NCBI GenBank assembly: GCA_020137815.1
Contig: CM035352.1
Span: forward strand, 5,580,001 to 5,644,000
DNA: 64,000 bases
Direction of reading: 5' to 3'
From: Hormiphora californensis
Lineage: Eukaryota > Animalia > Ctenophora
The notes under the pieces are model-generated. The model saw nothing but the letters and a program-made list of their open reading frames with translations. It had not been told where the DNA came from and did not search any database. Position numbers and translations under genes: made by a program. Positions 12,401 through 43,279 of this stretch are shown piece after piece. The first letter of the stretch is position 1. Each line of letters opens with the position of its first letter.

Positions 12401-15400
12401 ATTTAGGTCACGTGACTGGTTATCAGCCAATCAGGGACCAGTATTTCCTGATTCGGTCGGTTCCTGGTTGTTATGTCCTCGCCCTCCTTTGAGAGGGTGA
12501 AGGAAGACACTCCTAACCCCCTTTTCTCTCTAGATGACCCGTCTGAAACACTACCTAGGAGCAGTGAAGTTATCAGTAAACCATATACTGCAGATGTTCA
12601 GAGGCATCTTGATAAAAAGAGGCTCAGTCTCCCCGCTCCACCACTAGAACATGATATGCGGAGAGGCAGGTACTTTGTATGTGGGATGTCTACAATTTCT
12701 AGAGTTTATTTGGGTCATTACTAGCTACTAGTAGTTATTGTTTCCAATTAACAGTGGCGATAACACTCAATGGGGTAGATCACAAACAGTAGTGGGCCGC
12801 CTCCCCCGTCGTCCCCCTCCACTTGGTGGATCAGCTGATACCATGGGTAGGTCCTTCAATTATCAAGTTAATTAATCAATTAAATCATGCAATAATCAAT
12901 TAAATCGTGCAATAATCAATTAAATCATGCACTAAATCAATTAAATCATGCAATAATCAAGTAAATCATACAATAAATCAATTAAATCATGCAATAATCA
13001 ATTAAATCATGCAATGAATTGATATATTTTCAGAGGGGGGTCCAGTGTTTTATGACGACTATTTTGGAGACACTGTGTCAGTTTGTTCAGATACCTCTTC
13101 CATACCTAACAGCAGGTAATAACTCTCAACTAACACAGTGATCAGCTTTTAGTACAGATTCCATGACACTAAAATTTTATAGATTAATTTTCTGGGTTAG
13201 AATACATAAAATGATCCTCCCGCGCAATTACAAGAATCATGTAACGCGCATTGAAGGTCATATAAAGAAAGTACATCACAGTATGCTCCAGCTCCGCGCG
13301 CCCAGCATTATCTTCCTTTCCAGCGGCTGCTGCCCTATGTGTCACTGTGGCTCAGTGGCTGCCTTATTATGTGACTCACAGGGGAGGGGGGGGGGGGGGT
13401 GAGGGTGGTGACATGATAAATTGTTAATGTTGTTAAACCTTCACCACTTTTTTGAGTTAACATCGATTAATAAAATGAGAAAATCTTTAGATAACGGTCT
13501 GGTGAAGTTTTTGAATATTGCTCTATATTTTATGCAATTGTACAATTATTTATTGGATGGTTTGGTGGTCCGACATACAAGTTTTTTGGCCCAAAATCGA
13601 TGAAAACCAAATTCATGAGTGTTCTTAAGTTTTAATGGTGGGAAAATGTGGATTAGGGTATCGCGGTTTAGTTTGGCTAGTTTTTATTTAAATTTAAACA
13701 ATGGAGCAAATCACTGTGTAAGGTGGTAATAAACGTCCTTAGGGGTATGCAAATCCTGCAGAAGGAACACCTTTGCTTGCAGAACAACATGCTACAAGTG
13801 TTCAATACCAAAAACATGCGATAAAGGGGATTTAGATGGCATAAATGGCATTTATTAATGTTTGTTAATAGTGTATAATGTTAACCCTTCACCAAATTGT
13901 TCGATGTTAATTTTAACATGATTAACAAAATTATCGTGTCAAGCCCCCCTCCCCTCCGACTCACACTGCCTGCTGTGCCACTGTGGCTGCCTTATTGTGT
14001 GTCTCACACTGCCTGCTGTGCCACTGTGGCTGTCTTATTGTGTGTCTCACACTGCCTGCTGTGCCACCTGTTAGCAGGGATGCTGTGCCAGATAAATTGT
14101 CCACAAAATAATAATAATAATAATAATAATATCTAGACTTGTATCCTGCCCAGATCCCCCAGGGACAGCATAGCATAGCTAATACTGCCACTGAGGGATA
14201 ATCAGAGCAGTTTACTCACACACTCAACCAAAATTAGATTCAAAAACGGTGGTAAAAACCAAATTAACCTGCTCTCATGAGATGGAAGAAATACAATCGG
14301 ATTCATAACAGACATAAATGGTAAGAAGACAAAAAATGTAGCTTCAAAAAAAAAATATCCTCTACAACCTTTACACCTCTCCAAAGAACTTTATCAGATC
14401 AAAAAAGGTTCAGATAAATCTCTGAACCACCCTCAACACAGACATCGCCCAGGAAAAAGCGGAAACTGAACACTGAATAAAAATAGTATTACACACTCAG
14501 ACACTCGTGCTTCAAACCCAAAAAGATGTGCTAGAAAAACTTGTCACGAGGGACACACAGTACAAACACACGTCTTACCTGATAGACAGTATAACAGCGA
14601 GTGATAGGATAGCGATAGGGGAAATCCGGAAAGAGGAAAGACACAACTAGTCAGCCCCAAAGGATTCCACGAACAGTCTTGTCTTGAGACGGGTCTTAAA
14701 CGATTCCACAGTGGTCAACGACCTCAGATCGAGGGGGAGGGCATTCCAAAGGTCCGGTAGGAGAACTGACGGTCTCCTCTTCCTCAGTTTAGAACTGGCA
14801 TTCACACTCGACAGTTTGGGGTACCGGAGCTTAAAGAGATCGGGCACAGTAGTCGCTCTGGTCCGGCGGGGTACATCCAGTACATTGTCCGCAGGTATTT
14901 GCTCACAGAGGTAGTCTGGAGCACTTCCATGTATGATCTTGTAGGCCATAAGACATGATTTGAAGACAACACGTTGCTCAATAGGGAGAATGTGAGTCTC
15001 TCTCAGGTAGGGCAGGTAATCATCTTGATGACCATGCAGTCCATAGATGAACCTAACACAGGAATTGAGCACCTTCTGAAGGCGGGCAATGAGCTTCTTT
15101 GGAAGACCTCCATAAAGGATATTACAATAATCCAGTCGGGAGATAACAAGCTGCTTCACCAAGAGAACTTTGGTGGAGAAGTCCAGACAACGATTGACCT
15201 GCCATAAATTCTTCAACAGCATTCCACAATGTTTTCTCACACTGTTCACCTGACGCTCCAAAGTCAAGTTTTCATCCATGTAAATACCCAGAGTCTTGCC
15301 CGAAGTACCCTTGAAGTCAATAGGACCGATATCCACATCTCCAAACCTAACCGACGGTTCAAAAGTAAGCTTATCGATAGCACTACTTTTACCCAGGATG

Positions 15401-18366
15401 AGAAGTTCCGTCTTCGACTCATTGCATTTCAACCAGTGCTTGACCATCCATGCCTTGAGGCGATCAAGACATTCCTCAACATTCCTCTTCGTTCCTTTCC
15501 ATTGGTCTTCATCACAGGGAACCAGACTCACATAAATCTGTGAGTCATCTGCATATAGCTTAATTTTAAGCCCATATGCACGCACCAGATCCTGAAGTTC
15601 CTCCACATAGAGAAGAAACAAGACTGGACCAAGAAGGGATCCTTGGGGTACCCCACATATCAAATAAATCATCCTTGATAGTTCTCCTCGCACGTTCACT
15701 CTGAAGTTCCTCGATCCAAGATAACTGATAAACCACTGAAGGGCTGCTCCTCTTACTCCAAACCTCCTACTCAGAACGTCCACAAGCTTAGAATGATCCA
15801 CAGTGTCAAAGGCAGCCGACATATCCAAAAGAAGAAGGGCAACAATATTACCCTTGTCCATTTCCTGTAAAAGGTCATCAAACATTCCCATAAGTAGAGT
15901 CTCGCAACTATGGCCTACCCTGTACCCCGACTGGTGAGAGTTCAGTAAGTCATTCTCCTGAAGGAACTCGTTGAGCTGGTCAAGTACCACCTTCTCAAGA
16001 ACTTTTGAGATAAATGGTAGGTTCGATACCGGGCGATAGTTAGATAGGCTGTCCCTATCCCCATTAGGGTTCTTAATGGTGGGAAAAACAAAGGCTTGCT
16101 GAAACGTCTCTGGAACAACAGCTTTGCGAAGAGAGGAGTTAATAACTCTTGTAAACAGAGGAGCAAAAACTTCGATACACTCTTTAATCATCCACGTTGG
16201 TATCAGGTCCAGATCACACGTCTTATCCGCCATATCCTTCACTATCCTCTTAATCTCCTCACAAGAGACTTCCCTGAATTCCTCGAACGTACAATTCCTA
16301 ACCGAGTCCTCAAGAGATTCCACATCCTCATAAGCATGCTCCTCTGCAGTAACAGAATTTCTGATTTTCTCAACTTTACCAGTAAAGAAGTCCGCAAAAT
16401 CCTCAGCAAGTTTACGATCACATCCTGTTTCAGGTAGTACTACCTCACTTTTTCCCAGCAGTCGGTTGAGTTTCCTCTGTAGGCCATTGGAGTCCCCTTT
16501 AGATTCTTCGAGATCTGCTTTGACGTAGTTAATCCTCGCTTCCTTGTCAACTTTTCCAAACATCTTCTTCATAGCATTGTACTGCTTCTTCGTGATGGGG
16601 GTTTTATTACCCTCCCACGCCCTCTCAGCACACCGACGGAGTCTAAGTGCCTGTCTGACCTCCTCATTGTCTCTCCACGGGCGAAGCTTCTTAACTTTCT
16701 TTCTCCTCCTCAATGGGACAGTAGTATCCACTAATTCCTCTAGTTCTCGCTCATAGATCTCAAAGTTCTCTTCAGGGGAGTCCTCCAGCATACGATCCTC
16801 AAGATTCAGTCCTCTAACGGCTTTAGTAAACAAAACTGGGTCCACTGATTTGAAGTCTCTGTAGGTATTGACACGATTTCGGTCCTGCATGTTGCCATGC
16901 CTGGTTTCCAGGGAAACCTCACTCAAGACTAGGAAATGATCGGATTCAGTCCCATCAGGGTAAATCTCCAAGGATTTGACTTTTTCCTCCACTTCCTTCG
17001 GGCAAACCACTAGATCAAGTGTACCTCCACGATTGTGGGTAGGCTGCCTAGGAACAAGCTGAGAAAATTCCAGAGAGTCCAGGAGTTCAGCTAGCTTTCT
17101 GGTGTAGAAATTTTTCCCATCCTGCCACTGGAAATTAAAATCACCCATGATCAGAGGAAGACCTGTTTTTGACACCAGTTCAGAGAGATAATCCGCGAAT
17201 TCATCCAGGAACTTCGCCTCAGTAAACCGAGCTTTACCCGTATAGGGGGGTCTGTAAATATTACATAACCGAGTGAGATCGGCACCGTCCCCAATTAAAA
17301 CCTCCTGTATCTGAAAAGACACAAAATTCCGAACAGGTGACAGCCTGACCTTCACTCCATCCCGGTAGAGAATACCTATTCCTCCTCCCGCTCTCTCCGC
17401 TCTTGGTGATGAAAAGATATTCCAGCCATAATCTCGTATCTCCTGAAGTTTAGCTGTATCCGTATTCTTTAGGTATGTTTCCTGAATTAGACATATACCT
17501 TACTCTCGTTAATTAAGCTCGCATATTTCAAGAAACTTTTAAATAAGGAACTTTTTTACAAGAAACCCCAAAATTTAGACACCCTAAAAATAAGAAACTC
17601 TCTCGTTTATTAAGAAACTGAAAAAATAAGAAACCAAAATTAAGAAACTAAAAAAATAAGAAACCAAAAATAAGAAACCCCAAAAATAAGAAACCCCAAA
17701 AATAAGAAACCCCAAAATTAAGAAACCCCAAAAATAAGAAACCCCAAAATTAAGAAACCCCAAAATTAAGAAACCCCAAAATTAAGAAACCCCAAAATTA
17801 AGAAACCCCAAAAATAAGAAACCCCAAAAATAAGAAACCCCAAAATTAAGAAACCCCAAAATTAAGAAACCCCAAAAATAAGAAACCCCAAAAATAAGAA
17901 ACCCCAAAATTAAGAAACCCCAAAAATAAGAAACTCGAAAAATAAGAAACTCGAAAAATAAGAAACCTAATTAGGGGAGGGCCTCAAAAAGCCCTAAAAT
18001 GGACATTTTTGACAACACAGACCAAATGCGGCAAAATAACGCAATTTAAACTAGGTAAAATGTTGTTTAGGCTATTTCGAAGGTGTGGTCTAACGGTTGA
18101 CAGGTTACGGAATGGTGGCCGGAATAAGAAAGCTGAGACAAGGGGGGTTAAACACAAAACAAAACAACTGCAATGAACTGCTTGTGTGTTAACATTCAGA
18201 ACTGTTGCAGAATGCAGAGGCCCGTTTCTTATCTCTGTTTTCAAGATGGGTGTGTCGCCCTGCTTTCTCTCCCAATCTCTCTTCCTATCTCGTCCTCTTT
18301 TTCTTTCTTTATCATTGATGATGTCTGCGTGTGCGTGTTAGAGAGAGAGAGAGAGAGAGTGTGTGT

Positions 18367-18403
<37 letters not shown>

Positions 18404-21400
18404 AGAGAGATAGAGATAGAGAGAGATACTAAGAAGCAAAGCGAGTGTTAAAACACAATCTAAGAGTGGGTGGGTACGAAAAGATAAGGTATTAGACCAG
18501 AATGTAGCTCGACAGTGGGGGGTACGAAAAGATAAGAAGTGATACTGAGTGTGAGAAGGGAAAAAGGGGGGGGGGAAAGAGATGAAACAAAAATGACGAC
18601 ACGAAAGCAAGAAATCATGAACACAAAACACACGGATTTGAGAGAGTGCAAGAGATAGATGAACGAGATAGGGATCGGGAGGTGCTCATGCGTGACAGAC
18701 CTCCACGCACGTGACTTAGAATGCTCGCACCCAATTGGCTGATCATAGTGAAAGTGAAAGTGACCATAAATGCAGCAATTTGATTGGCTGCGCTGACTGA
18801 GTTTGTGATTGGGGGCGGGAACTGGGAAGAGAGAGAGAGAGAGAGGGTAGAGAGAGAGAGAGGGAGAGAGAAAGCAGGGCGACACACCCATCTTGAAAAC
18901 AGAGATAAGAAACGGGCCTCTGCAATGCATTCTGCAACAGTTCTGAATGTTAACACACAAGCAGTTCATTGCAGTTGTTTTGTTTTGTGTTTAACCCCCC
19001 TTGTCTCAGCTTTCTTATTCCGGCCACCATTTCGTAACCTGTCAACCGTTAGACCATACCTTCGAAATAGCCTAAACAACATCATACTACTTACTAAGCA
19101 AATTGTGTAACGGTGATCACCTAGCAACTACACTTGCACGTGCAATTATTAGAGAGACTTGGAGAGATCTCTCCCGGTTGTAGTTGGGTACCAAGGGCGA
19201 ATTCAATTCTGCACGTGCATTTACTTCTGTCCTTATGCCTAGCTCTTCCACCCCAATCGCTATTCGACAACGGTTATATGGGTCCAGAAGATCTGCTGCT
19301 GTCAGAGAGCAGGCTAGAGAATATGACAGATTACGCCAACGTGTTCAAGCGAGCCAATCAACCACTGAGGATAGCTTTACCCAACGTCGCCCAAGGGTGA
19401 TTACTCCAGTCGAATATAGAAATCTCCGAATCGGCTACATAGCGGTCAACTTTTCACGTGATGAGTTTCTGGAACAGCACTGCATCTCCATGACATTGAT
19501 CTCTTAAATTCGGACCTTGACATTGTCAGGAAGCCCAGAGCGTACAACAACATGAGTAGGGAGAAAGTGAGAGATAGGCTAGGAACGGATGGTGCAGGTG
19601 ATGTCAGCGTTCCCTAATCAAGCTACCATTTCCCCGAAATTCGCCCGTAGGGCGAACGGGCCTACTAGTTTTACCTAGTTTAAATTGCGTTATTTTGCTG
19701 CATTTGGTCTGTGTTGTCAAAAATGTCCATTTTAGGGCTTTTTGAGGCCCTCCCCTAATTAGGTTTCTTGTTTTTCGAGTTTCTTATTTTTGGGGTTTCT
19801 ACTTTCTTATTTTTCGAGTTTCTTATTTTTCGAGTTTCTTATTTTTGGGGTTTCTTATTTTTCGAGTTTCTTATTTTTCGAGTTTCTTATTTTTGGGGTT
19901 TCTTAATTTTGGGGTTTCTTAATTTTGGGGTTTCTTATTTTTGGGGTTTCTTATTTTTGGGGTTTCTTAATTTTGGGGTTTCTTATTTTTGGGGTTTCTT
20001 ATTTTTGGGGTTTCTTATTTTTGGGGTTTCTTAATTTTGGGGTTTCTTATTTTTGGGGTTTCTTAATTTTGGGGTTTCTTAATTTTGGGGTTTCTTAATT
20101 TTGGGGTTTCTTATTTTTGGGGTTTCTTATTTTTGCGTTTCTTATTTTTGGGGTTTCTTATTTTTGCGTTTCTTATTTTTGGGGTTTCTTACTTTCTTGG
20201 GGGAGTTTCTTATTTTGGGGTGTCTTATTTAATGTGTTTCCACATTTCCCGTTTCTTATAAAAAAATTTCTTCCTAAAGCGTTTCTTAATTAGCGAGAGT
20301 AAGGTATCACATTTCTTATCCTCAAGATGTGTAATGACCCCAGACGTTTTGTTCTGAATGGAGTGTACATTTAATGTACCGATCCTCCACGTCTCTTTAC
20401 TTTCAGATCTTCCCACGCCCTCGTCAGATAGGAGTTTTTTCGCTCCTTTGTGACTCCACTTGTGTTCTCCATGAGTCGTCCTCTAGCATTCACATAATGC
20501 GGACACAAGTTGCTTGATGCTGGGTGAGATTTCGCATATCTCTTATCCTCTTTGCTACCTCCAACATCACAGTTGACACACTTCATTCTACCAAGATCAT
20601 TGTCCTTCTTCGCATTACACTGTCTGGTGTCATGGTCCCCTGAACAGAATGCACAGGTGGGACTCTTATCTTTGTTAGGACAGTAAACGGATCCTGCAAC
20701 ATGTCCATATCGCTGACAATGGAAGCATTGTGTCACATAGAATCTGTCCTTCACAATATGCTGTCGTAGTTTCAGGAAAATCCTGTCTCGGTTGTTGGCA
20801 ATCATTGTCCGAATTTCGGGTGCAACCTTGATCACTGCATACTTCCCTGGGATATTGACGTGTACAACATTGATCGCCTGCCCTGCCTGATGTAGCCTCT
20901 TAATTCCCTCATTTTTATCACTAAGGATGGCATCCATCAGCGCATCCTTGTTCAATAGATCCTGGTCAAGATCAGAAATCATCAGTCGAGGGTCTCTCTT
21001 CTTCTGTTTCTCAACTACCGGAGTGACATCCAGAAAAGGTGATAGAGCCTTCTCTGCCTCCTTCAGATCATCATCAGTCTCAAAGAACAATTGAGTGTGC
21101 TTCCTATTCACGGAAGTATCAAGAACAGGAATGTTCTTCAACGCCTTCTCCACTTTCGATCTCACCACAGTGGTCCATTTCTCCTCACACATAGGGGTCG
21201 CTCCTTCATCACTTGTGTCTTTGATATTTACATACCGTTTGACAGGGGTTGGTGGTGATGGTTTCTTAGCCAGGTGATCTATACTTCGACTGGTACCACT
21301 TCCATTCTCCTCTTGGCTAACTTTCAATATTTCACTCACTTTTGGGGCTACAAGTCCAGGGAGGCTATCAATCAGGTCTTGTTTCAGTTTAGAGAAACTG

Positions 21401-24400
21401 TCCTTCAGGTCATCACACGAGAACGAAACTCCAGACTCGGAAGATAGGGTTGCACACCGAGATGTGTCAGGAAGCATGTTGTAGCACATAACAATCATTC
21501 TCCATAGGTGTTCTCTGGTAGGTCCATCCGGCGGGGTCATTCTTCCCTCTTCCAGGCACTTCACCACTGTACTGCCTTTACATCTGTCAGAGAAACTCGT
21601 GCCAAGTAACTCACCTTCATAATCTTTCTTCGTTCGTGTCATTCCATTTCCATACTGGGGTGCCACACCCGACATTCTATCCTGTAACAGTGACGCGAGG
21701 GACCGCTCCACCAAGATTTGGCTTCCCGGATTTGACTCAACGAGGTCTCCTAAGGCTTGCTCAATGTAGAGGGAGACAGGAACACCAGACTTGTCTTGTC
21801 TTTAGAAAAGAGATGGATTGAGCAGAGCTCTCAGAAGATTAACGAGGAGTAATTGAACGGAACCTCAAATTAATTTGTTTAAAGTAGTGTTGAAAAGTTT
21901 GAAACTAGAATACAAGGTTGCCTAGCTCGAACTTCCTTTACATGTATTATGGCCAGTATAAATGAAGTATGAACGTTTGTAGACTGGCGCGTTATGAAGT
22001 TGGCTGTTCCCAGCGCGAGCTGGGGACAGCCAACTGGAGTTTAATCGCCCGGCAGGGCGATTAAACTGGTTTAAATCCCGACGCCGATCCCGACGCGCCA
22101 GCCGAGGGTGAGGGGGAGGTGATTTAAACCTATAACGCGATAGGCTAACAAACGTTCATATTTTATGAAACCCGATAGCAATTACACACAAATAAGAGAC
22201 ACAACACAAGGTGAAACAGACTAGGACTGCTGGCAATTAGTCAACAGACACCCTGAAAATGTGTGTAGACTTAGTGTCTACTGTTCCTAACATGTTCGAG
22301 AAAGAGAGAGAAAGATTAGGGGCAATACACACTGTCAGAGGTAGTGAACAGTAAAAGAGACAATGAGAGAGAGAAATGAATGGAATGTGATTCTTTTCAC
22401 TCCTTATGAGAGAGATAACATTGAAACGTGTTGCAGACATGTTTCCCCTTTCTTTTGTTGACAGAACTGTGTGTTTACACACATTTTCAATACTTAGAAT
22501 TTTACACGCATGTTATTCAAATGAAGAGAAACGCGTGAAAAAGGGAACTGGTCTGTCAAACTGCGAGGAGGGTGTTAAATCTCCCAGCTGGCGGTTATCA
22601 TGTGCGCGCAAATTCTTCAAACGACTGATAAATCTGCTATCGGGTTTCATACCAGTATAAACCACTATCCTTCACCAAGGAGGAAATCGTTAAAATTAAA
22701 ATAGAATATAATCAATTAAAATCTACCCACGCCGATTTTTAATCGGAATTAAGGGTACGCTAACCAAAAATTTTTTTCGAGTGCAGGGAAATCTCTCGCC
22801 GTAGGGTTGTAGGCCATGCCAAGGAGACCTCAAATATGCAATTTGAGCTCTCAAGTCGAATTCATATTTTTGCTACAGCTGCTTGAAAAATGAACTGAAA
22901 ATAAGTTTTTGGCATCTCAAAAAAAATTTTTTAAAGATAGGAGCATGAAAATTTGGGGATTTGAAGAGGACATGAAGGTTAATAACCACCAAAAATTTTT
23001 TTGCAATCCGAGCTGATTTCCGGTCCTGAGATGGATTTCTTTTTTCCCACTTTAACGCCCTATTTGGCAAAGTTCCGAAAACATGTGAAAGCTGTAAATT
23101 GGTGAAAAGTTGCGTCTAACAATTATCTAAGTGGCCATAAATTTTGGGCGTGTCCTTATTTGAGATAAGCTGTACAGAGTTTTTTTTGTGAAAGCCGTCA
23201 TTTCAGAAATAAATAAATTCCCTGTATCTCAAAAACGGCTGATCGTAGAGACCTGAGACTATGCTTAAACGATTCAGAAGGTCCGATTTTGGGGGGGTCT
23301 TCTGAGAGACATTTTGCTCCTACTTCAACCGTTTTTGCTGTAATTGCGAAAAACAAAAACCCATCTTCGCCATCGTGGATTTTTTGTGATTTTGTTCTTG
23401 GTGATTATAGGGACCCATATGGACCAAATAGTGAAGGAATTAGCTTGTTACACACTTTTCCATAGTTTCGGTCCTTTCTTAGCTAAAATTCCCTAATTAC
23501 AGGATATTGGAGTTTAGCTTTTGCCCTTTTCATAGAATTTGTTTTTCGCAATTACAGCAAAAACGGTTGAAGTAGGAGCAAAATGTCTCTCAGAAGACCC
23601 CCCCAAAATCGGACCTTCTGAATCGTTTAAGCATAGTCTCAGGTCTCTACGATCAGCCGTTTTTGAGATACAGGGAATTTATTTATTTCTGAAATGACGG
23701 CTTTCACAAAAAAAACTCTGTACAGCTTATCTCAAATAAGGACACGCCCAAAATTTATGGCCACTTAGATAATCGTTAGACGAAACTTTTCACCAATTTA
23801 CAGCTTTCACATGTTTTCGGAACTTTGCCAAATAGGGCGTTAAAGTGGAAAAAAAGAAATCCATCTCGGGACCGGAAATCAGCTCGGATTGCAAAAAAAT
23901 TTTTTGTGGTTATTCCCCTTCATGTCCTCTTCAAATCCCCAAATTTTTATGCTCCTATCTTTAAAAAATTTTTTTTGAGATGCCAAAAACTTATTTTCAG
24001 TTCATTTTTCAAGCAGCTGTAGCAAAAATATGAATTCGACTTGAGAGCTCAAATTGCATATTTGAGGTCTCCTTGGCATGGCCTACAACCCTACGGCGAG
24101 AGATTTCCCTGCACTCGAAAAAAATTTTTGGTTAGCGTACCCTTAAATCTCCCTGGATGGTTTACAGTAGTTATGAATTGGGTGATTTACCGTAGTTATG
24201 TCGCCGCACCATGCTGAAAATAATATTTTTATTTATCTTAATTTATCTAAATGGTTCACCTTGAAAAGGTATCATTCGAATTTAATAAGGATCGAAATGG
24301 TTTCATATTTAAGTTTAATAAGAATATTAGCATTTCCCAGCACAAAATTTTACATAAAGACTTAGTTTTTTGAGTACACCAAGTTCTCCTTTTATCATTT

Positions 24401-27400: not shown

Positions 27401-30400
27401 ATTAATTAATTACTTAGAGATTAATTTTGGGGTGGCCCCTGCACAATTTTGGCAAATTTGATATTCAAACTTTGAGCCTTTGTGAAAGTAATGAAAATTA
27501 TTTATTTCAGGTTATGATGAACAATAAGCTATAAAAACGCCCCTTTTTGTTACACAAGCCTGTGCAGGTGCTTGGTATCGAAGACACCTTACACTCTGTC
27601 GCCGGGCGACCTTCGCGTGCACACGCTGGCAAGGGGTAACTTCGTAACCAAAGCCTGTGCATTGTGCATAATGAAATGGATAAATTTTCATCCAGTTGCT
27701 GGCGATAGAACTCGATAGAGTTCGATTGATTTACCATGACAACGGAGTTGGTTACCATACTAACCAGAGAATTCGTTGTAAAATAGTCCTTTCTTGCTAT
27801 AAACTCGGCCTTTAGATAGAAAATTGATTTTATTCTACTCGCACTAATGCAAGGGCATTTCACAGTTTGGTGCCGTTATTTTTGTCTCTATTTTTAATAG
27901 GATTTTGGGATTAGACTGAAAGTATGGGATCATTTGAGAAGTAGTGAAGATTTGAAAATGTTAGCAACTTGCCGGTTCGACAAACTAAACCCATATGATT
28001 CCAACTTCGGGTCGGACGAGGGGAAGCTTGCCTTTTGCGAACATATGTCTTAATGAATGGATCAGTTAGGGGGGCTTTTAGCAGGTTTAAGTGACTTCTG
28101 AGTCGAATATCATGCATTATGGGATCGTCTAAGTAGCAGATGGGAGGTCAATTGAATAGCAGAGTAGCGCGAGTCAATGGTGTATGAATTGGAAATGGAA
28201 TTGTGTGGTAACTGGCACACATTTTAGGACAGCAGTATCAATACAAGAAGACACACAGACACGGATGATGGAAGTGGTTTGTTGTGAGAAAGGGTTGAGA
28301 GCAAGGAAAGGAATTGTTATGTTCTAACCCTCCTTTACGGGACACGCGAAACACAGTCTAGCTAGGCAACCGCGAAACATAGTCTAGCTAGGCAAGGAAA
28401 GGAAGTGGTAAATCCATTTCAACCTCTCTACACTTACACATTAATGATAGTCATCTGTAGAAGGTAGACAAGCCGTGACTTGTTCTTTACCAGAGATGAC
28501 AGTGTAGTTTGAGTTATCCCTGTTATCTCTAACAACTGAAAATAATGGTATGTAGTTTCGAGACAAAATTTAGGTCCAAAGATCAACTACTTAGGCGGTT
28601 TAATAGGCCTATTAAACTTATTAAACCGCCTAAGTAGTTGATCTCTGGGCCTGGGTTTATATATCATGTAACTAGGGACAATTTTCTTTGGGTTCTTGTA
28701 CCCCTCACTTTAACAAGCTCTAATTTAAACCATTTATTTGGATTCCAATCCCGGCGATTAATCTGTTAACGGTTGACAAGTTATCTAAAATATTTCTTCT
28801 ATCTTAGAAGAAAAGTTATCTAAACTATTTCTCCTATCTTAGAAGGAAAGTTCTAGTTATCTTGTTAATAACATGGGGCATAATTTACAGGTGGAATGTT
28901 CCCTTGTCAAATATTTCTAAATGCTCTTCTTGAAAGCCATTCAGATTGTCAAAGTCTCGACATGACTGAGTGATCTCTGTGTGGCGGCGCCATACCCCAT
29001 TTGCCTGAGTGATCTTTAGTCTTGACAGAATGAAAATGTTAAAAATCTGGAATGCAATATGAATGGAATATGAGTATGTATAATTATAGGCTATAGCGGA
29101 CAGATTGTGGTGATTCTCCCGGGTTAGAATCCGAAAATTACACAATTGTATATACTAAGTCATCCGGGTGATTTTCCTTACCGTCCATAGTGAGTATGTC
29201 CACCACCACAGATACGTTAGACAAAATGTAGAACCCAACACCAGAAGAGTCTTCGTGGCCTTCGACATGGCTAGCGTTGGAACAGAAATCGATTCTGGGG
29301 AGGGGGGGGGGGGTGAATATTGAAAGTCTGGAACGCCATTGCAATAGCATGCTATTCGCCCTTTGGTATAATTACTCTGTTTCAAAGAGCCCAGTCTATT
29401 TTGTGCGATATAACTTACTGCAAATGTTAGCTGATCGATTAGTTTCTAGAACTTCCACCATCCGCTTTCTCTGCAGTTGAAACATCTTAAGTAGGGTAAG
29501 TATTAGGAGGATGATGATAATAATACCAGGAATGGTTGTGGGTAGAATTATAAGGAAGGTGTACGGCATTATCCAATTCGAGAGATCTCCTGAAACGGGG
29601 GGGGGGGGGGGGGGGGTGATATTACTTATCATAGAGATAAGATTGAATCAATTTTATGTGCTAGTTCACTTAGTTCGACCTTTTAATGCTAATGGCTTTA
29701 TATGCTAAGTATATATTGACGGTTATATACAGTCGAACCCTGATGAATTTTTGACCCTCTATAGATCAAATTTTCACACCAAACAAGCAAATTCAATGAC
29801 ACACTAGGCTTTGCATAGCATATATAAGTAGATATATCATTAGTATATAAGGCGCTTTAATGAATTTTAGACTCGTTCTACATGATCTGAAACTTACGCT
29901 TGTCCTCGAATTTAAAGACTTCATCGATCCGATACGTGCATAGACACTCATATTTATTAAAGTAATATTCACTGCCCATTGTGTATGGAACCAGAGAAAC
30001 ACACAAGGGAAACGCCCATAGGACTCCTGAAACATAGGGGTGGAAGGGTAAAATGTGGGGGTTTAGGTCTCCGTGAAATATGTTGTGCCAACATTGAGCT
30101 ACATGACCGTCTGTTGCATCATGATGAAAACATAGTGTTATTGATATGGTATAATATGATTGATATGGTATAAAATATTGATCTACCGAACCCTCACAGA
30201 GCGCGCTGTGAGCCACATAATTGTGGTCTATAATAACACAGAGGGGGCAATAGCGGGGGAAGGCTTATCACACAAATTGTCTTTTAACTGGTATAAAATA
30301 TTAATTTTTCATTTTCTGATCATATCTTCGTGATTGCTAAGAATCTAAGGCAGCCCTAGATATAATATGTAGATTTGTAGGTGGCCTTTCTAGTACATAT

Positions 30401-31380
30401 TTCAAGTCTTACCAATCATCATTATAGAGTTGTGCCTGTTAAACACACTCTTGTATCGGAAGGGCCAGGTCATGGCAAATAACCTGCCGACTGCCATCAG
30501 CAAGATTACCAGAAGAGTCGCTCGTGAGGTGAAATTGTGGATAAAACCTGTCAGGTTACATACCAACCGACCTGATAATGGGGGAAGGGGGGTGCTGGTT
30601 AAGGGGTGCTAGGGGATGCTGGGGAAGGGGGGTGCTGGTTAAGGGGTGCCCATTTTGCCCAAAGTCTCACGATTTTTGTCCATTATATGGGCAAATATGG
30701 GCATATATGGGCAAAAATAAAGGTGACGCCCCCCCCCCCTTGTCTGAACGATGACATTTCAGATTTATAGGCAGAGCCGGCTCTGCCTATAAATCTGAAA
30801 TGTCATCTTTCAGACAAGCATGGGGCAATAAAATTATCACTCAGTAATATGACAACTTAAAGATCAGGTCTCTCAGTAGCTTCAAATTTGATACCTTTAA
30901 TCATGGCTCAATCAGAGAAGGTTATTATTATATATATGTGGGTGTCACGAAACAGCATTGGCCTACCCCTATTCTCAATTGGGAGCGTGTGAGAACTGTG
31001 GTCAGAGCATTGAAATATCACGAAACAGTGCATTCTTTAATATCTTACTATATAATGCAAAAACACCCGAAACTTGATCCCACCCATGCATGTTTGGTGG
31101 TCCCTAAATCGTCGTCATCAAGATCAGATCACATCACCCAACAATCAACATGCATGATCAGATCACCCTACTGAGGATCAGATCCCCCCACCAGATCAGA
31201 TCACCCCTACTGATTGGAGTCAAGATCCCCCCACCCAGATCAGATCATCCCATTGAGGATCTATCACCCCACCCAGATCAGATCACCCAGTGATATCAGA
31301 TCCCACATTTCACGCAGCATCCACTGTGCGTGATGAGATCCCCAGAGAGAAGATGAGAGAGAGAGATGAGGAGAGAGAAG

Positions 31381-34873: not shown

Positions 34874-37800
34874 TTGTCATATTGAAAATACCTTTCGCTG
34901 GTGACACTGCGCCATCACGTTGAAGATAAGACCAAAAATAAGAATAACCGACAGGAGAGTTACAAGAGTGTAATCTGCAGTTTCATCTCGGATCGTGGTT
35001 GAATTTTTCATCTCCTAATCGCTGGGAGGGCTTGGGTTTTGTTAAAAAGAATTAGAAAGTCCGTTTTCTATAAAGCATGCACATTAAAGCAAAGTTTCAG
35101 ACAATTTGAGGTGAGCGCCAAGTTTTAATTCACAAATAATGCAATCCCTCCTCGGCCCTTCTCTCGTGATATTTATATCCAGAGTCTAATTTTGATGTTG
35201 TAATCCAACTTGTACTTGGGGTGCACCTTATTGCTCCACCAATTCTAACAATGCTATTATAATAGCGATATACAAAAGTAGACAAAAAGTGACGCTCCCC
35301 CCCCCCCCACCGATATAATAGCATTGTTAGAATTGGTGGAGCAATAAGGTGCACCCCAAGTACAAGTTGGATTACAACATCAAAATTAGAGTTTGTAGAG
35401 TAAAAGTAAATAGGTTCACTGTCAACGTGTCACAAAATAGGGCCCTATAGGGGGGGGGGGGGAGAACTGCTGAGACACTCCACGCACCACTCCCACTACA
35501 TTAAGTTATTTAGGAGATGGGAGATCGGTTGGTTTCAGGGGTGCAATTCATGCATCAGCAAAGGTCAGGTAGCTGTGTGTACACGTTTCAACTTCAAATA
35601 CTGTCTGCACTATGTATTTTAATATTTCAACAAAACATGTTCCTGCAGAGAGCTGAAAGAATCATTAACTCGAGAGTTGGGAGTAAGGAATGTGTTAAGG
35701 GATGAGATGGCCCAGCTTCGAGACGCCTTCCAGGGAAAACAGCACCACAATGATGCAGTACGTTAATTAGTTAATTAATTAGTTAGTTCTCTATAATTTG
35801 TATACTACTACTACGAGTGCCTGGGCTTGCCAACGGCAAGCCCACAGGGGACTATCGCAAGCGATATCGCCGGCACTAGGAGAGCAGCCCCCCCAATCCC
35901 CCCACGAAAAAACCAAGAGGTTACAACAAGGACCTGTCATCTGACACGATCACTTGAAGGTGGTTCAAGGATTGGAGGTGCGTCTCCTGCGGTAGTTGTT
36001 TGATTTGTTTCTATTGTTTCCCTGTTCTGTGTATTTCCCCTGTGCTACCATCAGGGGTTATACTCTCCTTATTTCATTTTTTTTCTTTCTCTTCTTTTGC
36101 TTTGAGTTCATGAACTTTGCTTATGATCTTTAAGGCTTCCTCTGTGTGGTGTAGTATTGTTTCTCCTAGGTTATCGTAGTTTGTTTTTCCGCTTATTCTC
36201 ATTCTTACTATTTTCAGTGTTTCGCAATCGCATATCAGGTGTTTGGATGTTTCCTCTGCCTTAGAACATAGGCTACATGTTGCTGAGTTTGTTTTCCCAA
36301 TTTTTTTGAGGTACTTGTTGAATGGTCCTATATTTGTGGTGAGGTGTGTGATGTTTCTGAATTTCTTCCTGTTCTTTTTGTATATTTCTATCTTTTTTGT
36401 GAGTGTTTTCCAAGTTAATTTGCTCGTAATTATTTGTTTTGTTTGTTTGCCACCTTTTTTAAGGAAATGATTCCATGTGTTTTCCTTGGCTGTTTCCTTA
36501 GTGTTTGTTTTGATGTAACTCTGGGGGATTGGGCTTGGTAGACTTTCGCTTATTTGTTTCTTACTTCCTTCTTTGGCTAGTATGTCAGCCGCCTCGTTGC
36601 CTTCTATCCCTATATGTGCTTTAACCCATTTGACTGTTACGTGATTGTGTTGGGCCAGTTTATTTAGCTCGTTATTGCTCTGCTTTATAGTCTATAATTT
36701 GTATGATACGTGATTTATAGCATGTTTTAATCAATTAACAGTCATATGATAAAAAGTCAACTACTACTAGTTTTGATGCTCTACTGAAACCAATTAAGGT
36801 GATCAGAAGTTTACAAAGGGAAAACCAGGCGCTGAAGCAGCAGCTAAGGAAGTACGTCTCGGTAATACAGACAATACGAAGGCAGCACGATATTGTTGAT
36901 ACCCCTGAGATTGCCGCAGGTATACTAATTTTCAGGAAATAGCATAATAACCTGTATTTTGTACCCTACCTTTCTTCAATTTTCTTAGAATATTCTAGAC
37001 CCTATCAAATGGGGCCTGAAATGCCACATTTTAGTCACATTTCGCAATTTAGAGAAAGAGAGAGCAAATAGGGGATAATGATAGATAGGGGATAATGATA
37101 GATAGGTATAATTTAAGCAACTTTTGAAAGATTACCTGTCAACAAAATATGAATCAATAAGTTGACCAATCGGCTGTTTTTGAGTCGCATAGTTCTGATA
37201 CAATGAAATAGTGTTTATTTAGGACTGTACACGACTCGGAGATTTATCTCAGGAAAGATAATACGGAACGGTTTCGACGTTTAACGTCATCATCAGCTCA
37301 AATTAATTTGTTTAAAGTAGTGTTGAAAAGTTTGAGCTGATGATGACGTTAAACGTCGAAACCGTCCCGTATTATCTTTCCTGAAATAATAATAATAATA
37401 AGTCGTCTACAGTCCTAAATAAACACTATTTCATTGTAACAAAATATGGGTCGTGGACCCTCAACAGTGTTAGTGAACTACGAACTAGGGCACCAACTAT
37501 CACTATACCAATAATGTTTCCTATGTTTCAGTGTTGGTGGAGGTTCCAGTTGTCCAGCCATTACAACTACCACTACCAAGCACCTCGACCAACTGTGATA
37601 CAACTGCTTTAGAACAAAAGCTAGCCCAGGTGACAACATTAACCACATGATTCATAATTACCACATATAATTAATTACCACAGTCAAAACAATATGAAGG
37701 ATCCCTATATTATCCCTATATTATCCCATTAAACCTTTTTTAGGTTTCTGAAATGCACGGCGAACTACTGGAGTTCAATCAGTCCCTACTGGCACAGAAC

Positions 37801-40566: not shown

Positions 40567-43279
40567 TTGCTTAGGATAGTGACACACGCCACTTAATTGA
40601 ATCAGCTCTCTAATCTGCAACTTTTTTAGTTCTTTATTTCTCTCTCTCTCTCTCTCTCTCCCTCTCTCTCTCCCTCTCTCTCTCTCCCTCTCCCGCCGAT
40701 CATCCCCTTATCAATCTTTATTTCTTGGAATTTCCTTCTCTCTCTACCAATACTAAGCTGAGGTGCCATTTCTTTCCCGCCTTCTGGCGGTTTCGCATCT
40801 CTCACAGAGCTCTGCTACCACTTCCCAAATTTCAAGTTTTTACATTTTATTCTATTATGAATTATTTAACAATCATTTTTCACACTAGCTCAGCATTAAG
40901 CATGGTCAATACTCGTGCCACCGCTCCAGTTCCCGTCAACATGATGGATGACTGCTGCAACACATCCGACGAGGACATGTTTGATGACATCACCCTACCC
41001 CCGGACTATGTTCCTCCAGCTACAAAACCGAGATATCCTAATCGACGTCCTACTGCTGCCGTGGCTCCTACAGCTACCTCAGCACGTCCTAGTGGTGCAG
41101 CTACTGCAGGGAGGTCCCAACCTAATTTCGATCTCATGATTGATGAACTGTTGGAAGGATCCACTCCTGCCAACACTCAGCGTGCCACGAAATGGGCTGT
41201 CAACCACTTCGATTCTTGGATCGTCTCTGTTGAAATCTTCCCATGGACCACCTTACTGACAGTTCCACCGGTACACTTGAACAAGGTGTTATCTGCTTTC
41301 GTGACTCATCTGAACACTCTAGAGCTCCGGTCAACCACCCTCTATCAAATTCACTGTGGACTGAGCCGTGAATTGAAATCGAAGATGGGGAAAGACATCA
41401 TTGAGGACCTTGCTTTCAAAAGTTATCGTGATGTCCTAGACGGGATGATGAAAGCAAAACAGGCAAATGAGGAACGTCGGCACACCAAAGCACAGGCTGA
41501 TATTATCTCTCCTGATGAAATGAGAGAAGTGGTCAACTCTTACCGGCTGAATGAAATAACTCCTCCTGAACTTCTTGAGCTCCTGTTATTCTCTATTCAC
41601 CGTGTGTTCTGCACTAGAGGATCGGATGAATTGAGCCAACTAACAATTGGCTGCATACAGGTTAAACTCCAAAATCAGTCTCCAGTGAAGGTGACATCAA
41701 CATACCTGGAGAGAAGGTCTAAAAACCGCCAACCGGGACTTGCCAATGTTCACAAGGAACCTAAAATCGTCACCCATTCGGAACTGTACAAACCTGGTAG
41801 TAGCAACTGTTTTGCAGTCGTGTTGATGAAATATCTGTCTCATCTACCCCCTGATCTGCCCCCATCTACCAAGCTTCTGTGCCACCCATTCACCAAGCCG
41901 AAAGACAACGTGTGGTTCAACCCATCTAAACCCATCGGACGAAATTATTGTCCCAAACTGTTCAACAGAGCACTGCAACATGGAGGTATAACTAGGGTGT
42001 TCACTATCCGTACTATGAGATCAAGTGTAGTCCACCAGTTAGCGGATGCAGGACTCTGCCCGGAGCAAATAAGGACACGGACCGGGCACTCAACAAACGC
42101 GGCTACCCTCCAATACACCAGATACAGGAATAACCAAACTCATGAGGAAATTTCTGATATTTTGAACAAATCTGTGTCTCCTGAAGGACCTTCTCTCTTC
42201 AACTGGGATGATCCTGATCGCCTCATCAAGAAGATGCTTGTCTTGGTACTCCTACTCGTGGCCCTTCTGCTACTCAAGTTCATTTTCTTTTAAATGAATT
42301 ACTCTTTTAATTCTTCTCTTATATCATTGTTTACATGTTTATCTCAACAAAACGTATCTCATTATAACGTTAAGTTACATAATCAGCTACGTTTTCATAT
42401 GAATCATATTTCACAATCTCGTTCTCGCGGAATATATACTCAATAACGTCCTGCACGGCATGTGCAAGCGTTCCTATATCGCACTCGTTTCACTCGTGCA
42501 ATATAGGTGTGAAATGCACTCCAGCTGCGCTGTCGTGCATTTCACCTCCATATACGCTCTGCAGTGCAGAGCGTATATGGCGCGCTTGCACTGCGTGCAG
42601 AACGTTATGTACTATATATTGTCATCTTTCTCTATACCTGCTACATGGCATAGAATTAGAATTAGAGAACAATGCAGAATTTTTAGCCGAATGAAATGAC
42701 TATAGCCTTCTATGATCAGTCCATAATAATTGACCATTTGGCATGCCAAGTGACAACCCCGTATGCCTTTTTGTAAATCAAATAGATTCATTTGAACAGA
42801 TGGCACTTTATCTTACAAATTGGTAACAGATCATATTATATGTGACATATTATTGCATATACTATAATAGGGAGCGCTATTTAGCCAACTTATATCAGGA
42901 AGCGACTGTGGTGGAGGAACGCCGCGTTAAGCTCGAGAGCTATCTACAGCGAGTAACGTCTTATCTGGCGGACAAGAAACTTGGAGTCGACTGCCCTACC
43001 ATGGACTTAGAACTCAACTCTAGCTTCAACACAGTCGTAAATGCAATACAATTTCTCAGGTATGTTTTATAACGTGAGTAAGAGTTAATTTGCCATGCCA
43101 TATTCATGCCATATACAGTCGGACCCCGATTTAGTGGCATACTCGGAGGGAAGAAATCCTGCCACTAAATCGGGGTGCCACTAAATCGGGGGCCACTAAA
43201 TCGGGGTTCGACTGTATGTCATATTAATTTTAAATTAATTTTCAGAACCCTTGAAGAGGACCTTGCATATGGATTTTAG
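6427..43279 (+). CDS. SNX29: Sorting nexin-29-like (RUN domain, low-complexity linker, coiled coil, PX domain), multi-exon
   Basis: Approximate exons: 6427-6633 (LLGKLEDAITSVQLKYGG...VANLCRCLENVF), 6811-6907, 6994-7094 (GRFRSWLR/STLNDGLMGRYL), 7284-7469, 7690-7907, 11621-11699, 11881-12342, 12533-12669, 12755-12846, 13034-13114, possibly 24411-24448, 35649-35757, 36799-36919 (RENQALKQQLRKYV), 37531-37629, 37744-37860 (VSEMHGELLEFN), ~39727-39826 (KVWIP...YHVYQ), 39934-40009 (WTIYRRYTDF), ~40148-40213, 42899-43059 (EERRVKLESYLQ), 43246-43279. Domain order and peptides match SNX29 as recalled. Confidence 0.85.
8214..8867 (-). mobile_element. Helentron/DINE-1-type non-autonomous element (HINE)
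   Basis: On the minus strand: 5' TTTCCCTGCCC subTIR plus GC hairpin; 3' GGGCAGGGAAAC subTIR, GCATTATG-CATAATGC stem-loop, CTTGTT end. Inserted in a T-run without TSD and absent from the opposite arm of the host foldback element. Confidence 0.7.
9287..9628. mobile_element. Palindromic MITE (~165-bp arms)
   Basis: TCTGACTGTGGTCTG...CCAATCAGAGGCC is mirrored by GGCCTCTGATTGG...CAGACCACAGTCAGA. Confidence 0.7.
10529..10589. mobile_element. 61-65-bp mini-MITE (TTGTTATGTT...AACTTAGCAA); other copies 10899-10963, 28314-28395, partial ~47328 and ~47457
   Basis: Imperfect 10-bp TIR. TSD CTTTTTTG here, GATCTACA at the second copy, GGAAAGGAA at the third. Confidence 0.7.
12358..12466. mobile_element. 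hAT-type MITE (CAGGAACCGACCGA TIR, 8-bp TSD)
   Basis: TSD GTTGTTAT on both sides; CAG...CTG termini. Family copies at 32017-32128, 49983-50077 and 54581-54684. Confidence 0.85.
12877..13015. repeat. ~20-bp tandem minisatellite (CAATTAAATCATGCAATAAT)
   Basis: About 7 tandem units visible inside an SNX29 intron. Confidence 0.85.
13381..13957. mobile_element. MITE with G-rich imperfect TIRs and 8-bp TSD
   Basis: TSD GACTCACA at 13373-13380 and 13958-13965; TGACATGATAAATTGTTAAT / ATTAACAAAATTATCGTGTCA inverted ends. Confidence 0.65.
17498..20304. mobile_element. Tc1/mariner(pogo)-type non-autonomous foldback element with 16-bp (AATAAGAAACCCCAAA)n arrays
   Basis: TIR CCTTACTCTCGTTAATTAAG / CTTAATTAGCGAGAGTAAGG; TA TSD at 17496-97 and 20305-06; mirrored arms extend inward to ~18270/18870. 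Confidence 0.85.
19082..19668 (+). mobile_element. Non-autonomous Helitron
   Basis: 5' TC; 3' GCCCGT-ACGGGC hairpin then CTAG; inserted between A and T with no TSD. The empty site CCTAAACAACA^TTTTACCTAG is confirmed by the opposite arm of the host element (18051-18071). Confidence 0.85.
20371..21714 (-). CDS. LINE ORF1, gag-like nucleic-acid-binding protein with three Cys/His knuckles
   Basis: QCFHCQRYGHVAGSVYC, CAFCSGDHDTRQC, CVNC...HPASSNLC. Overlaps the ORF2 start. Confidence 0.85.
   Translation of the reverse strand: MVERSLASLLQDRMSGVAPQYGNGMTRTKKDYEGELLGTSFSDRCKGSTVVKCLEEGRMTPPDGPTREHLWRMIVMCYNMLPDTSRCATLSSESGVSFSCDDLKDSFSKLKQDLIDSLPGLVAPKVSEILKVSQEENGSGTSRSIDHLAKKPSPPTPVKRYVNIKDTSDEGATPMCEEKWTTVVRSKVEKALKNIPVLDTSVNRKHTQLFFETDDDLKEAEKALSPFLDVTPVVEKQKKRDPRLMISDLDQDLLNKDALMDAILSDKNEGIKRLHQAGQAINVVHVNIPGKYAVIKVAPEIRTMIANNRDRIFLKLRQHIVKDRFYVTQCFHCQRYGHVAGSVYCPNKDKSPTCAFCSGDHDTRQCNAKKDNDLGRMKCVNCDVGGSKEDKRYAKSHPASSNLCPHYVNARGRLMENTSGVTKERKNSYLTRAWEDLKVKRRGGSVH
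21864..21906 (-). other. Spliced-leader-like sequence at the LINE 5' end
   Basis: AGTTTCAAACTTTTCAACACTACTTTAAACAAATTAATTTGAG; 39 nt are identical to 37297-37335. Matches the ctenophore SL as recalled (ends TTTGAG). Confidence 0.8.
22753..24142. mobile_element. Kolobok-like foldback MITE (~600-bp arms, TTAA TSD, GG termini)
   Basis: TTAA|GGGTACGCTAACC...GGTTAGCGTACCC|TTAA. Twin spurious ORFs 22873-23070(-) and 23825-24022(+). Confidence 0.8.
25702..32259 (-). CDS. Rhodopsin-type 7TM GPCR, multi-exon, nested antisense in an SNX29 intron (start uncertain)
   Basis: TM-like exons in order: ~32130-32200 (GPTFHNILIVLL), 31817-31965 (TTVFFFMVLSMTN), 30445-30553 (ATLLVILLMAVGRLFAMTWPFRY), ~29975-30050 (GVLWAFPLCVSLVPY), 29418-29590 (TM5), 29180-29295 (KATKTLLVLGSTFCLTYL), 28432-28535, 26167-26392 (YLSCITDPLVY), ~25910-25985, 25702-25780. 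Confidence 0.7.
26515..28045. mobile_element. 1.5-kb dispersed non-autonomous element, copy 1 (subterminal IR CCGACCCGAAG/CTTCGGGTCGG, terminal hairpins)
   Basis: Near-identical to 50816-53445 minus its insert; contains many TGCAAGGGC motifs. Confidence 0.85.
31355..31680. repeat. (GA)n / (GAGACA)n / (GAAACA)n microsatellite cluster; similar tracts at 18340-18425, 39355-39410, 40480-40690 and 58990-59100
   Basis: Direct inspection. Confidence 0.95.
32017..32128. mobile_element. hAT-type MITE copy
   Basis: Same TIR as 12358-12466; TSD GTGTATAA. Confidence 0.85.
32655..34344 (+). CDS. Rhodopsin-type 7TM GPCR, ~5 exons, nested in the same orientation within an SNX29 intron
   Basis: Exons 32655-32959 (TM1-2, HLSVSD), ~33104-33279 (TM3), 33429-33776 (TM4-5, AIPIIVP), 33855-34023 (TM6, VYVVCN), 34180-34344 (TM7 LSPILH, stop TAA). 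GT-AG boundaries visible. Confidence 0.8.
34500..34872 (+). mobile_element. Probable 3' UTR fragment of an L2-type LINE
   Basis: Ends TGGGCGGTATATAAG...(ATT)n, resembling the 3' end of the L2 at 14108-14190. 5' limit is approximate. Confidence 0.45.
35185..35390. repeat. Inverted repeat (~75-bp arms); shorter near-perfect palindromes at 28572-28652 and 30740-30817
   Basis: TCTAATTTTGATGTTGTAATCC...ACAATGCTATTA is mirrored on the right. Confidence 0.75.
35804..36690 (-). mobile_element. 5'-truncated RNase H-bearing LINE (LOA/R1/I group)
   Basis: Minus strand translates VTVKWVKAHIGIEGNEAADILAKEG (RNase H) and CSLCSKAEETSKHLICDC (CCHC). (TAG)n tail; 14-bp TSD TCTATAATTTGTAT at 35790-35803 and 36691-36704. 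Confidence 0.85.
37199..37438. mobile_element. Palindromic Penelope-like pLTR remnant: hammerhead core on each arm, SL at centre
   Basis: ~100-bp inverted arms, each with CTGATGA-T-GACGT/ACGTC-GAAAC, followed by AATAAA. The spacer is the SL motif (37297-37335, minus strand). Confidence 0.65.
40263..42619 (+). mobile_element. Crypton (tyrosine-recombinase DNA transposon), apparently complete
   Basis: YR ORF flanked by hairpin-rich ends, TATATAT at both termini, subterminal IR ATATATACCGCGAG / CTCGCGGAATATAT. Lies in an SNX29 PX-domain intron. Confidence 0.75.
40901..42293 (+). CDS. Crypton tyrosine recombinase (DUF3504-like) with hydrophobic C-terminal tail
   Basis: NTQRATKWAVNHFDSW N-terminal helix; catalytic-type residues RGSDE (R), ERRSKN (K), TIRTMR (HxxR position), RTGHS (H), LQY (Y); VWF...PIGRN. 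Start assumed at MVNTRA; the frame is open from 40725. Confidence 0.85.
43116..43214. mobile_element. Tc1/pogo-type mini-MITE (TA|CAGTCGGACCCCGATTTA...CGACTG|TA); relatives at 50614-50713 and 60083-60240
   Basis: CAGTC termini and TA TSD in all three copies. Confidence 0.8.

Follow-up and report, generated by a model that had tools for sequence, protein, structure and literature searches.

A spliced-leader-headed Penelope stub with an inverted arm in Hormiphora californensis, probably a retrocopy of trans-spliced RNA

The window, a 64,000-nucleotide stretch of contig CM035352.1 of the ctenophore Hormiphora californensis, holds a palindrome of about 290 bases; all positions below are window positions. 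The insert occupies 37152-37438 and, to judge from the sequence alone, is predicted to lie inside an intron of a host gene on the plus strand. It consists of two inverted arms, each starting with a hammerhead core, and a spacer between them. The first-pass annotation had described this arrangement and all of the parts were found where it placed them, but its boundaries (37199-37438), which took in both arms and the spacer, missed a 47-nt extension of the left arm and the flanking target-site duplication (TSD). The features are listed here, L007 being a metagenome locus that matches the arm.

36920-37531, plus strand: predicted host intron around the insert (GT..AG between open exons; gene on the plus strand)
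37142-37151, plus strand: left TSD by direct-repeat comparison (11 nt if 37141 is counted)
37152-37198, minus strand: one-sided 47-nt tail, holding an ATG at 37190-37188
37199-37296, minus strand: sense arm, Penelope pLTR/5' UTR, 89 of 98 positions identical to L007 1265-1362
37267-37296, minus strand: minimal type I hammerhead core (CUGAUGA, extra U, 5-bp helix II closed by G10.1-C11.1, GAAA, GUU)
37297-37335, minus strand: nt 6-44 of the ctenophore spliced leader (SL), abutting the native acceptor AG of the element
37298-37302 with 37331-37335, no strand assigned: 5-bp inverted repeat internal to the SL, the junction microhomology of the window copy
37336-37438, plus strand: inverted arm without tail (aligned part 37337-37438), its end base being that of the L007 copy (1362)
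37337-37366, plus strand: second hammerhead core, with a GUC triplet
37439-37448, plus strand: right TSD by direct-repeat comparison (also given from 37438)
21864-21906, minus strand: comparator SL nt 2-44 (exact), not part of the insert, heading a LINE without inversion

The insert is bounded on both sides by a direct repeat of 10-11 nt; 44 of 20,000 random window pairs matched equally well. The last two bases of the left TSD are also the terminal bases of the family, a microhomology of 2 nt. Alignment of the arms with one another (37199-37296 against 37337-37438) gave 91 identities, 7 mismatches and 4 gap bases. No variant private to both arms marks one of them as a copy of the other, nor does any exclude copying. 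In the right arm, at about 37385-37401, an (AAT)n tract that is rare in the sequencing runs stands in place of seven family bases and may reflect either slippage of the reverse transcriptase (RT) or a later change.

The minus strand of the 39-nt spacer is an exact match to nt 6-44 of the H. californensis SL as given in the available text of PMC8527503, and the SL is also abundant in the sequencing runs of this organism. The spacer had already been recognized as the SL of the species, and this identity was confirmed against the published sequence. What required correction was the strand; the SL lies on the minus strand, and the TTTGA that leads the right arm is the complement of SL nt 6-10 and is common to SL and arm. 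The pairing of TCAAA with TTTGA had been named as the turning point of the palindrome, and this was borne out. Among 145 arm positions no other offers SL nt 6 a microhomology of 5 nt, so the location of the turn at the SL repeat is not a matter of chance. In a computed fold the hairpin formed by the SL repeat alone had a free energy of +0.8 kcal/mol and a pair probability of 0.15-0.2.

The boundary of the SL in the window falls exactly where the acceptor AG of L007 ends, and everything upstream of that AG has been replaced. In L007, the sequence before the hammerhead core has a branch point, CTAAC, 26 nt ahead of the boundary between TAG and CTGATGA, followed by a pyrimidine- and AT-rich tract and the TAG itself; donor-like hexamers lie 76, 87 and 91 nt before the acceptor AG. 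In D. virilis, Penelope has a 75-nt intron whose 3' end falls at the 5' end of helix I (PMC4209133; PMC2377424, available parts). Because that intron also ends at helix I, the L007 acceptor resembles a conserved Penelope acceptor, here used in trans. By these sequence comparisons, the SL is joined exactly at the native 3' splice acceptor of the element, directly before CUGAUGA. The insert thus has the marks of an SL trans-spliced retrocopy: the SL is that of the host, it abuts the native acceptor AG, and no donor follows it. Given its position, the SL replaces whatever forms the 5' strand of helix I, which supports the earlier proposal that it takes the place of that strand of stem I. A pattern search for the SL followed by CTGANGA returned 0 matches in the genome-contig and viral-contig collections. 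In run X9, which is RNA only by guess, there were SL contigs continuing into hammerhead-like letters with 4-7 mismatches, none of them on L007; these perhaps represent a second trans-spliced Penelope-like element (PLE) family.

The SL at 21864-21906 heads a LINE on the minus strand that runs from 21906 to about 13206 and encodes ORF1 (20371-21801, with CCHC knuckles) and an APE-RT ORF2 (14647-17499). Since this second SL heads an APE-RT LINE that has no inversion, SL-headed retrocopies are not special to Penelope here and the inversion is a Penelope trait. The LINE is interrupted by an inverted-repeat insertion at about 17495-20307; its candidate 9-nt TSD at 13206 is weak and no tail was seen. 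Just upstream of it, at 22746-24149, is a 612-bp inverted repeat with 98.5% identity. MITE-like palindromes with neither SL nor hammerhead core are present at 1984-2208, 9287-9628, 28572-28652, 30739-30818 and 35180-35395. A 559-amino acid frame on the plus strand (40614-42293), with DUF3504 and weak tyrosine-recombinase matches that are both below cut-off, is presumably Crypton-like.

Both hammerhead cores start with CTGATGA-T-GACGT-TAA-ACGTC-GAAA-CC-GT(T/C); the triplet is GUU in the sense arm of the window and GUC in most contigs of the family. A descriptor of the core matched twice in the 64-kb window, once in each arm, and 0 times in 60 doublet shuffles, while Rfam returned no hammerhead or SL family match. 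The core has the elements of the minimal type I hammerhead as defined in the available text of PMC4209133, namely CUGANGA, GAAA and UH, with G10.1-C11.1 closing helix II and a base following position 9. In the GUC register helix I comprises 1 bp with native acceptor and SL alike (4-5 bp in the definition; 2 bp in D. virilis), and in the GUA register 4 bp in native L007 and 2 bp with the SL. In the computed ensemble neither helix I fold was favored, the probability being about 0. A G-to-A difference of the organism at L007 1261 would preserve a GUA-register pair.

The SL had been suggested to switch off cleavage, an idea that is weak on the modeled helices. Metazoan minimal hammerheads cleave poorly alone (PMC4209133), and in the anole element hammerhead cleavage requires protein and is dispensable for insertion (PMC11167929), according to the available parts of these papers. 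One or two other copies begin at 37265-37266, the predicted GUC cleavage point (including the 37265-37405 junction described below), and one inverted arm begins at 37260, one base off the GUA point. The starts at 37265-37266 are possibly a trace of ribozyme cleavage in vivo; both these and the start at 37260 are leads only.

A scan of metagenome contigs with the hammerhead pattern yielded 10 loci, among which only L007 matches the arm itself; the other nine were excluded from the argument. Those nine (L001-L006, L008-L010) share the hammerhead core, have a palindromic ACAUGU helix III and lack the SL, and three of them (L001, L004, L006) are located within an inverted repeat. L007, whose source may be another species, is the 3' part of a Penelope-like element, with an RT bearing YVDD (3-587), a frameshift, a linker, a GIY-YIG-type endonuclease and then the hammerhead. 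The linker CNVTNCIVC (CX4CxxC) is of the Neptune/Nematis type, CX2-5CxxC before GIY-YIG. The GIY-YIG domain was detected with PF01541 at E 0.0016, below the curated cut-off, and Pfam made no call on the 194-amino acid RT piece. Among 227 candidates, 29 were homologues of L007 at E<=1e-10, all of them longer than L007's own piece. Homologue P0011 had GIY-YIG above the cut-off, P0003 had RVT_1 above the cut-off, and one homologue had RVT_1 above the cut-off plus GIY-YIG. The five full-length homologues (926-940 amino acids) showed 40-62% tblastn identity across the RT and endonuclease parts. A search of the PDB gave nothing under E 0.36, and no L007 RT was confirmed in the viral contigs.

A contig in run X3 passes from the endonuclease end into the hammerhead, so that the pLTR lies downstream of the ORF, matching the insert. 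A link between the arm and a GIY-YIG/RT Penelope ORF, as anticipated from the hammerhead, was therefore found by way of L007 and its homologues. Within the 64-kb window there is no Penelope ORF (best tblastn E 0.49), and the RT ORFs of the window belong to APE-type LINEs. The ATG at 37190-37188 in the tail opens MRLKNSRLVNLLI, which is likely, on the evidence of the reading frame, the start of the Penelope ORF. Four of the five full-length homologues start with MRL(I/L). Similarity scores against the tail start were 16-29 for those four and 13 for the fifth, the null maximum being 18 in 226 internal Met windows; three of the five homologues exceed this maximum. Furthermore, the tail adjoins L007 position 1362 in three X4 contigs. 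The insert is a derivative of an EN+ Penelope-like element and itself lacks the ORF body. The first-pass description of a short retroelement holds with regard to the Penelope relationship, but the unit is not free-standing; it represents the 5' UTR of an autonomous Penelope together with the start of its ORF.

The window sequence, or part of it, is present in 7 of the 9 listed runs, from 3 studies; one of the samples may be the source of the window, and no run with the sequence is listed as RNA. Contigs of X3, X4, X6 and X9 were compared with the window, and those of X3, X4, X8 and X9 with L007 900-1420. The arm is a repeat, as 19 (X3), 10 (X4) and 13 (X6) contigs leave the element at 37150 into differing flanks. 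Both flank junctions of the window locus are covered in X3 and X4 contigs; no listed contig spans the whole insert, and no empty site was found among the contigs listed from X3, X4, X6 and X9. The native acceptor runs into the core in one contig per run (X3 1071-1291, X4 1187-1291), which comes from the endonuclease end or 3' UTR, while SL letters stand at the same acceptor in at least 7 contigs of X3 and at least 4 of X4, among the matches listed on L007 900-1420. X8 and X9 gave 0 contigs on this segment, a zero that may be false, X9 being RNA only by guess. The single-contig depth of the native upstream region (1061 and 911) against that of unique flanks (312-415 and 213-309) corresponds to roughly 3-4 copies, an estimate from single-contig depths only with summed contig depth left aside. 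At several positions that distinguish it from L007, the body of the family hardly varies.

The possibility had been raised that other copies break at the SL, and they do so, at its 5' end. The 12 junctions listed, a listing that cannot show copies with the window's own junction, comprised six of the SL 5' end with an inverted arm, two of arm with inverted arm without the SL (37194-37401 and 37265-37405), and four that were skips within the arm or other families. The six SL inversions represent five distinct junctions, landing at 37218, 37251, 37260, 37281/2 and 37405. All six break within the first 3-8 bases of the SL, and their landing positions in the arm differ. Exact microhomology at these other junctions was 4, 2, 0-3 (TTTCA, 5 with the family letter) and 0 nt, and the 37405 junction contains four intervening letters, three of them SL. 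The support for each junction is a single assembled contig in each run, matched at 80% likeness; one of these has just 24 letters on the short side, and intervening letters may be hidden. Microhomology was scored exactly, a score that allows slack being uninformative (at least 4 nt at 49 of 142 positions).

The claim that priming by the SL's own 5-bp repeat is the rule did not stand, since all five of the other distinct SL junctions listed land elsewhere and two inversions lack the SL. Given these junctions, with 0-4 (or 5) nt at other sites, and the positive free energy of the hairpin, the SL repeat is one patch among several rather than a dedicated primer. The outer ends fall into two classes, 37150 (19 X3 contigs) and 37196-37199 (the right arm of the window, L007, one X3 contig and one X4 contig). 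Other rearranged copies were also seen. A contig in X3, X4 and X6 (37194 to 37318) joins the 5' half of the SL via 28 other letters to the same tail, an X4 variant (37183 to 37268) has 36 other letters between hammerhead and tail, and copies in X3 and X4 (37183 to 37157) have part of the tail duplicated.

Trans-splicing places an SL at the 5' end of processed sense RNA and nowhere else. The template, at least of the founder, was therefore a spliced sense RNA, and the position of the SL exactly at the splice site of the element makes it likely that a host-processed RNA was copied. That the insert is a processed SL-Penelope stub is regarded as very probable; given this, the chance that the inverted arm was produced by the joining of two cDNAs is put only a little above even. 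The reading as a whole, judged fairly likely, is that of a short non-coding Penelope 5'-end retrocopy, made by Penelope RT on SL-trans-spliced, capped sense RNA, with a second cDNA, also primed at the target and linked to the first at the cap end by a short microhomology, as the inverted arm.

According to the available text of PMC11167929, the two target strands are nicked by the Penelope enzyme at points about 10 nt from each other, and reverse transcription begins internally on the RNA, at two fixed positions close to where the ORF starts. In the anole element the two start sites are separated by the length of the tail, and each target strand is cleaved and extended. By this route, the SL would be trans-spliced onto Penelope sense RNA at the pLTR acceptor to give a capped template, on which RT would start, as Penelope biochemistry suggests, at two points lying some 100 and 145 nt downstream of the SL. 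One cDNA would begin at the tail end (37150-2) and the other 47 nt closer (37199/37438). Both would run off at or near the cap because only 140-190 nt lie upstream of the start sites on the SL-capped RNA. The free 3' ends of the cDNAs could then anneal at any complementary patch, here the TCAAA/TTTGA of the SL, followed by trimming and fill-in. The product would be a dead end with no ORF and no internal promoter region. The two classes of outer ends are expected from two initiation sites, and the arm that lacks the tail shares its final base with the L007 copy and lies directly against the TSD, with further contigs stopping at 37196.

In the alternative of fold-back self-priming, a single cDNA would reach the cap, its 3' end would fold on a short patch and copy the second arm, and the endonuclease would resolve the hairpin at the tail boundary. 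The junction in the window is what fold-back would use, being the single best microhomology of 145 positions, and the SL-side breaks cluster at the cap end. Moreover, Arkhipova et al. inferred self-priming of an antisense strand from junction palindromes (PMC3846280, available text), and the cDNA is such a strand. However, the landing sites range across at least 65 nt, and at some of them the microhomology is 0-2 nt; the hairpin of the SL is unstable (+0.8 kcal/mol), no inversion accompanies the LINE that this SL heads, and a PLE has been seen in vitro to cut both strands and extend them from two start sites (PMC11167929). The central junction looks alike under both mechanisms and cannot discriminate between them. 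The outer ends lean to two cDNAs, so that two-cDNA joining fits slightly better; yet a hairpin resolved by the endonuclease could leave the same tail-less end (PMC8557442, available text), and fold-back, although rather unlikely, retains an appreciable chance for this reason. Of the first-pass proposal that an SL-trans-spliced RNA was copied to the cap and the cDNA then folded back, the SL RNA template, at least of the founder, and the breaks at the cap end are upheld, and the fold-back step is less favored because the landings vary.

A SINE-like non-autonomous master, with the SL fixed in DNA and amplified by the Penelope enzyme, would need only its founder to come from trans-spliced RNA. It would account for the excess of SL-headed over native contigs, among the matches listed, and for the near-uniform family body, but the 5' breaks fall within SL nt 3-8 and not in a common flank, native copies with an intact acceptor occur in the same runs, and no promoter is evident in SL plus arm; it is considered improbable. 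Rearrangement at the DNA level after a plain insertion, by repair or a replication template switch, or an artefact of assembly, is more improbable still. Inversions without the SL do occur and no listed contig spans the whole insert. Nevertheless, the arms differ at 11 positions and so are not an assembly mirror, both flank junctions were found in contigs of two samples, and the TSD abuts both outer ends in a layout that is recurrent in PLEs. Least credible is that the insert is a gene for SL RNA, or a structured ncRNA of the host that resembles a miRNA or snoRNA. The insert folds as one long hairpin (-152.7 kcal/mol) and Rfam miRNA hairpin models score 53.6 bits, but this is below the gathering score of 90.8, and the insert shares 91% identity with a Penelope pLTR and is flanked by a TSD. 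An SL RNA gene in particular was ruled out, since CTGATGA follows the SL and there is no GT donor.

Which RNA Penelope elements copy and how their inverted ends form are both unsettled, and the SL provides a natural tag for these questions. A 2013 rotifer study (PMC3846280, available text) proposed self-priming on an antisense or unspliced template for head-to-head inversions and intron retention, and asked for means to discriminate between template models. The stubs indicate that spliced sense RNA was the source of at least some insertions, and that these invert at the point where the cDNA arrives at the cap. With tens of such copies in one genome, template polarity, start sites and inversion mechanism become countable from sequence alone, and the 2013 proposal becomes testable by counting SL-tagged copies. 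Additionally, 718 and 491 genomic SL copies have been reported in two ctenophores (PMC8527503, available text). The SL-headed stubs offer an origin for part of these and a caution that genomic SL matches are not all SL genes.

A broader and tentative reading, about whose truth there is more doubt than confidence, is that SL trans-splicing in ctenophores is part of the Penelope cycle. The conserved pLTR acceptor would let the host cut tandem transcripts into capped monomers and, because RT starts just inside the ORF, capped RNA would yield only dead SL stubs; helix I might be toggled as well. Many of the hundreds of unexplained genomic SL copies would then be retro-fossils that record inversion at the cap end of sense cDNA. 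If true, trans-splicing both feeds Penelope translation and brakes full-length transposition in ctenophores.

The marking of retroposition by genomic SLs and the presence of SLs on TE RNAs are already known. In dinoflagellate relic-SL retrogenes (PMC5585692) a genomic SL likewise marks the reverse transcription of trans-spliced RNA, and in Hydra (PMC12220107), where about 30% of TE transcripts carry an SL, TE RNAs are likewise trans-spliced. However, the former are host genes and the latter operates at the RNA level; as far as the available parts of these papers go, neither concerns PLE pLTR stubs with inversion at the cap end. A literature search, mostly at the level of titles and listings, turned up neither trans-splicing of an SL at the pLTR acceptor of a PLE nor inverted stubs capped by an SL. 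Non-LTR retrozymes (bioRxiv 10.64898/2026.07.22.740005, available part) are also short hammerhead-bearing derivatives of PLE pLTRs, but they are head-to-tail tandems. In the insert the arms stand head to head around an SL, and no tandem was found in the window, so that a non-LTR retrozyme was ruled out.

The closest likeness in overall layout is to Penelope itself, for which the available parts of PMC3846280 and PMC8557442 describe a head-to-head inverted pLTR, a one-sided tail with the ORF start and a 9-10-bp TSD. As in EN+ PLEs such as Pen2a_Av, the insert has an inverted 5' pLTR, a one-sided ORF-start tail, of 47 nt against the 30-40 described for PLEs, and a short TSD; it differs in having the host SL at the pLTR acceptor, in the loss of the intron region and in having no ORF body. 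PLEs are known for intron retention, for which an antisense or unspliced template was proposed (PMC3846280), whereas the insert comes from a spliced form. PAc Poseidon (PMC11167929) likewise has two RT start sites bounding the tail and little homology between primer and RNA, 1-2 nt in the insert. Its hammerhead overlaps the ATG, whereas that of the window lies about 100 nt before it, and SLs and an inverted arm are not addressed in the available text of that paper. The hammerheads of metazoan pLTRs (PMC4209133, available text) have the same core, with the extra base after position 9, G10.1-C11.1 and no real helix III, and the same opposite-strand pairing, 100-700 bp apart; in the window, by comparison, the 15.2-16.2 segment is an odd-length quasi-palindrome and helix I is 1 bp in the GUC register. 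Finally, Penelope of D. virilis (PMC4209133; PMC2377424, available parts) has the same acceptor at helix I, giving spliced and unspliced forms, whereas in the window family this acceptor is used in trans by the SL.
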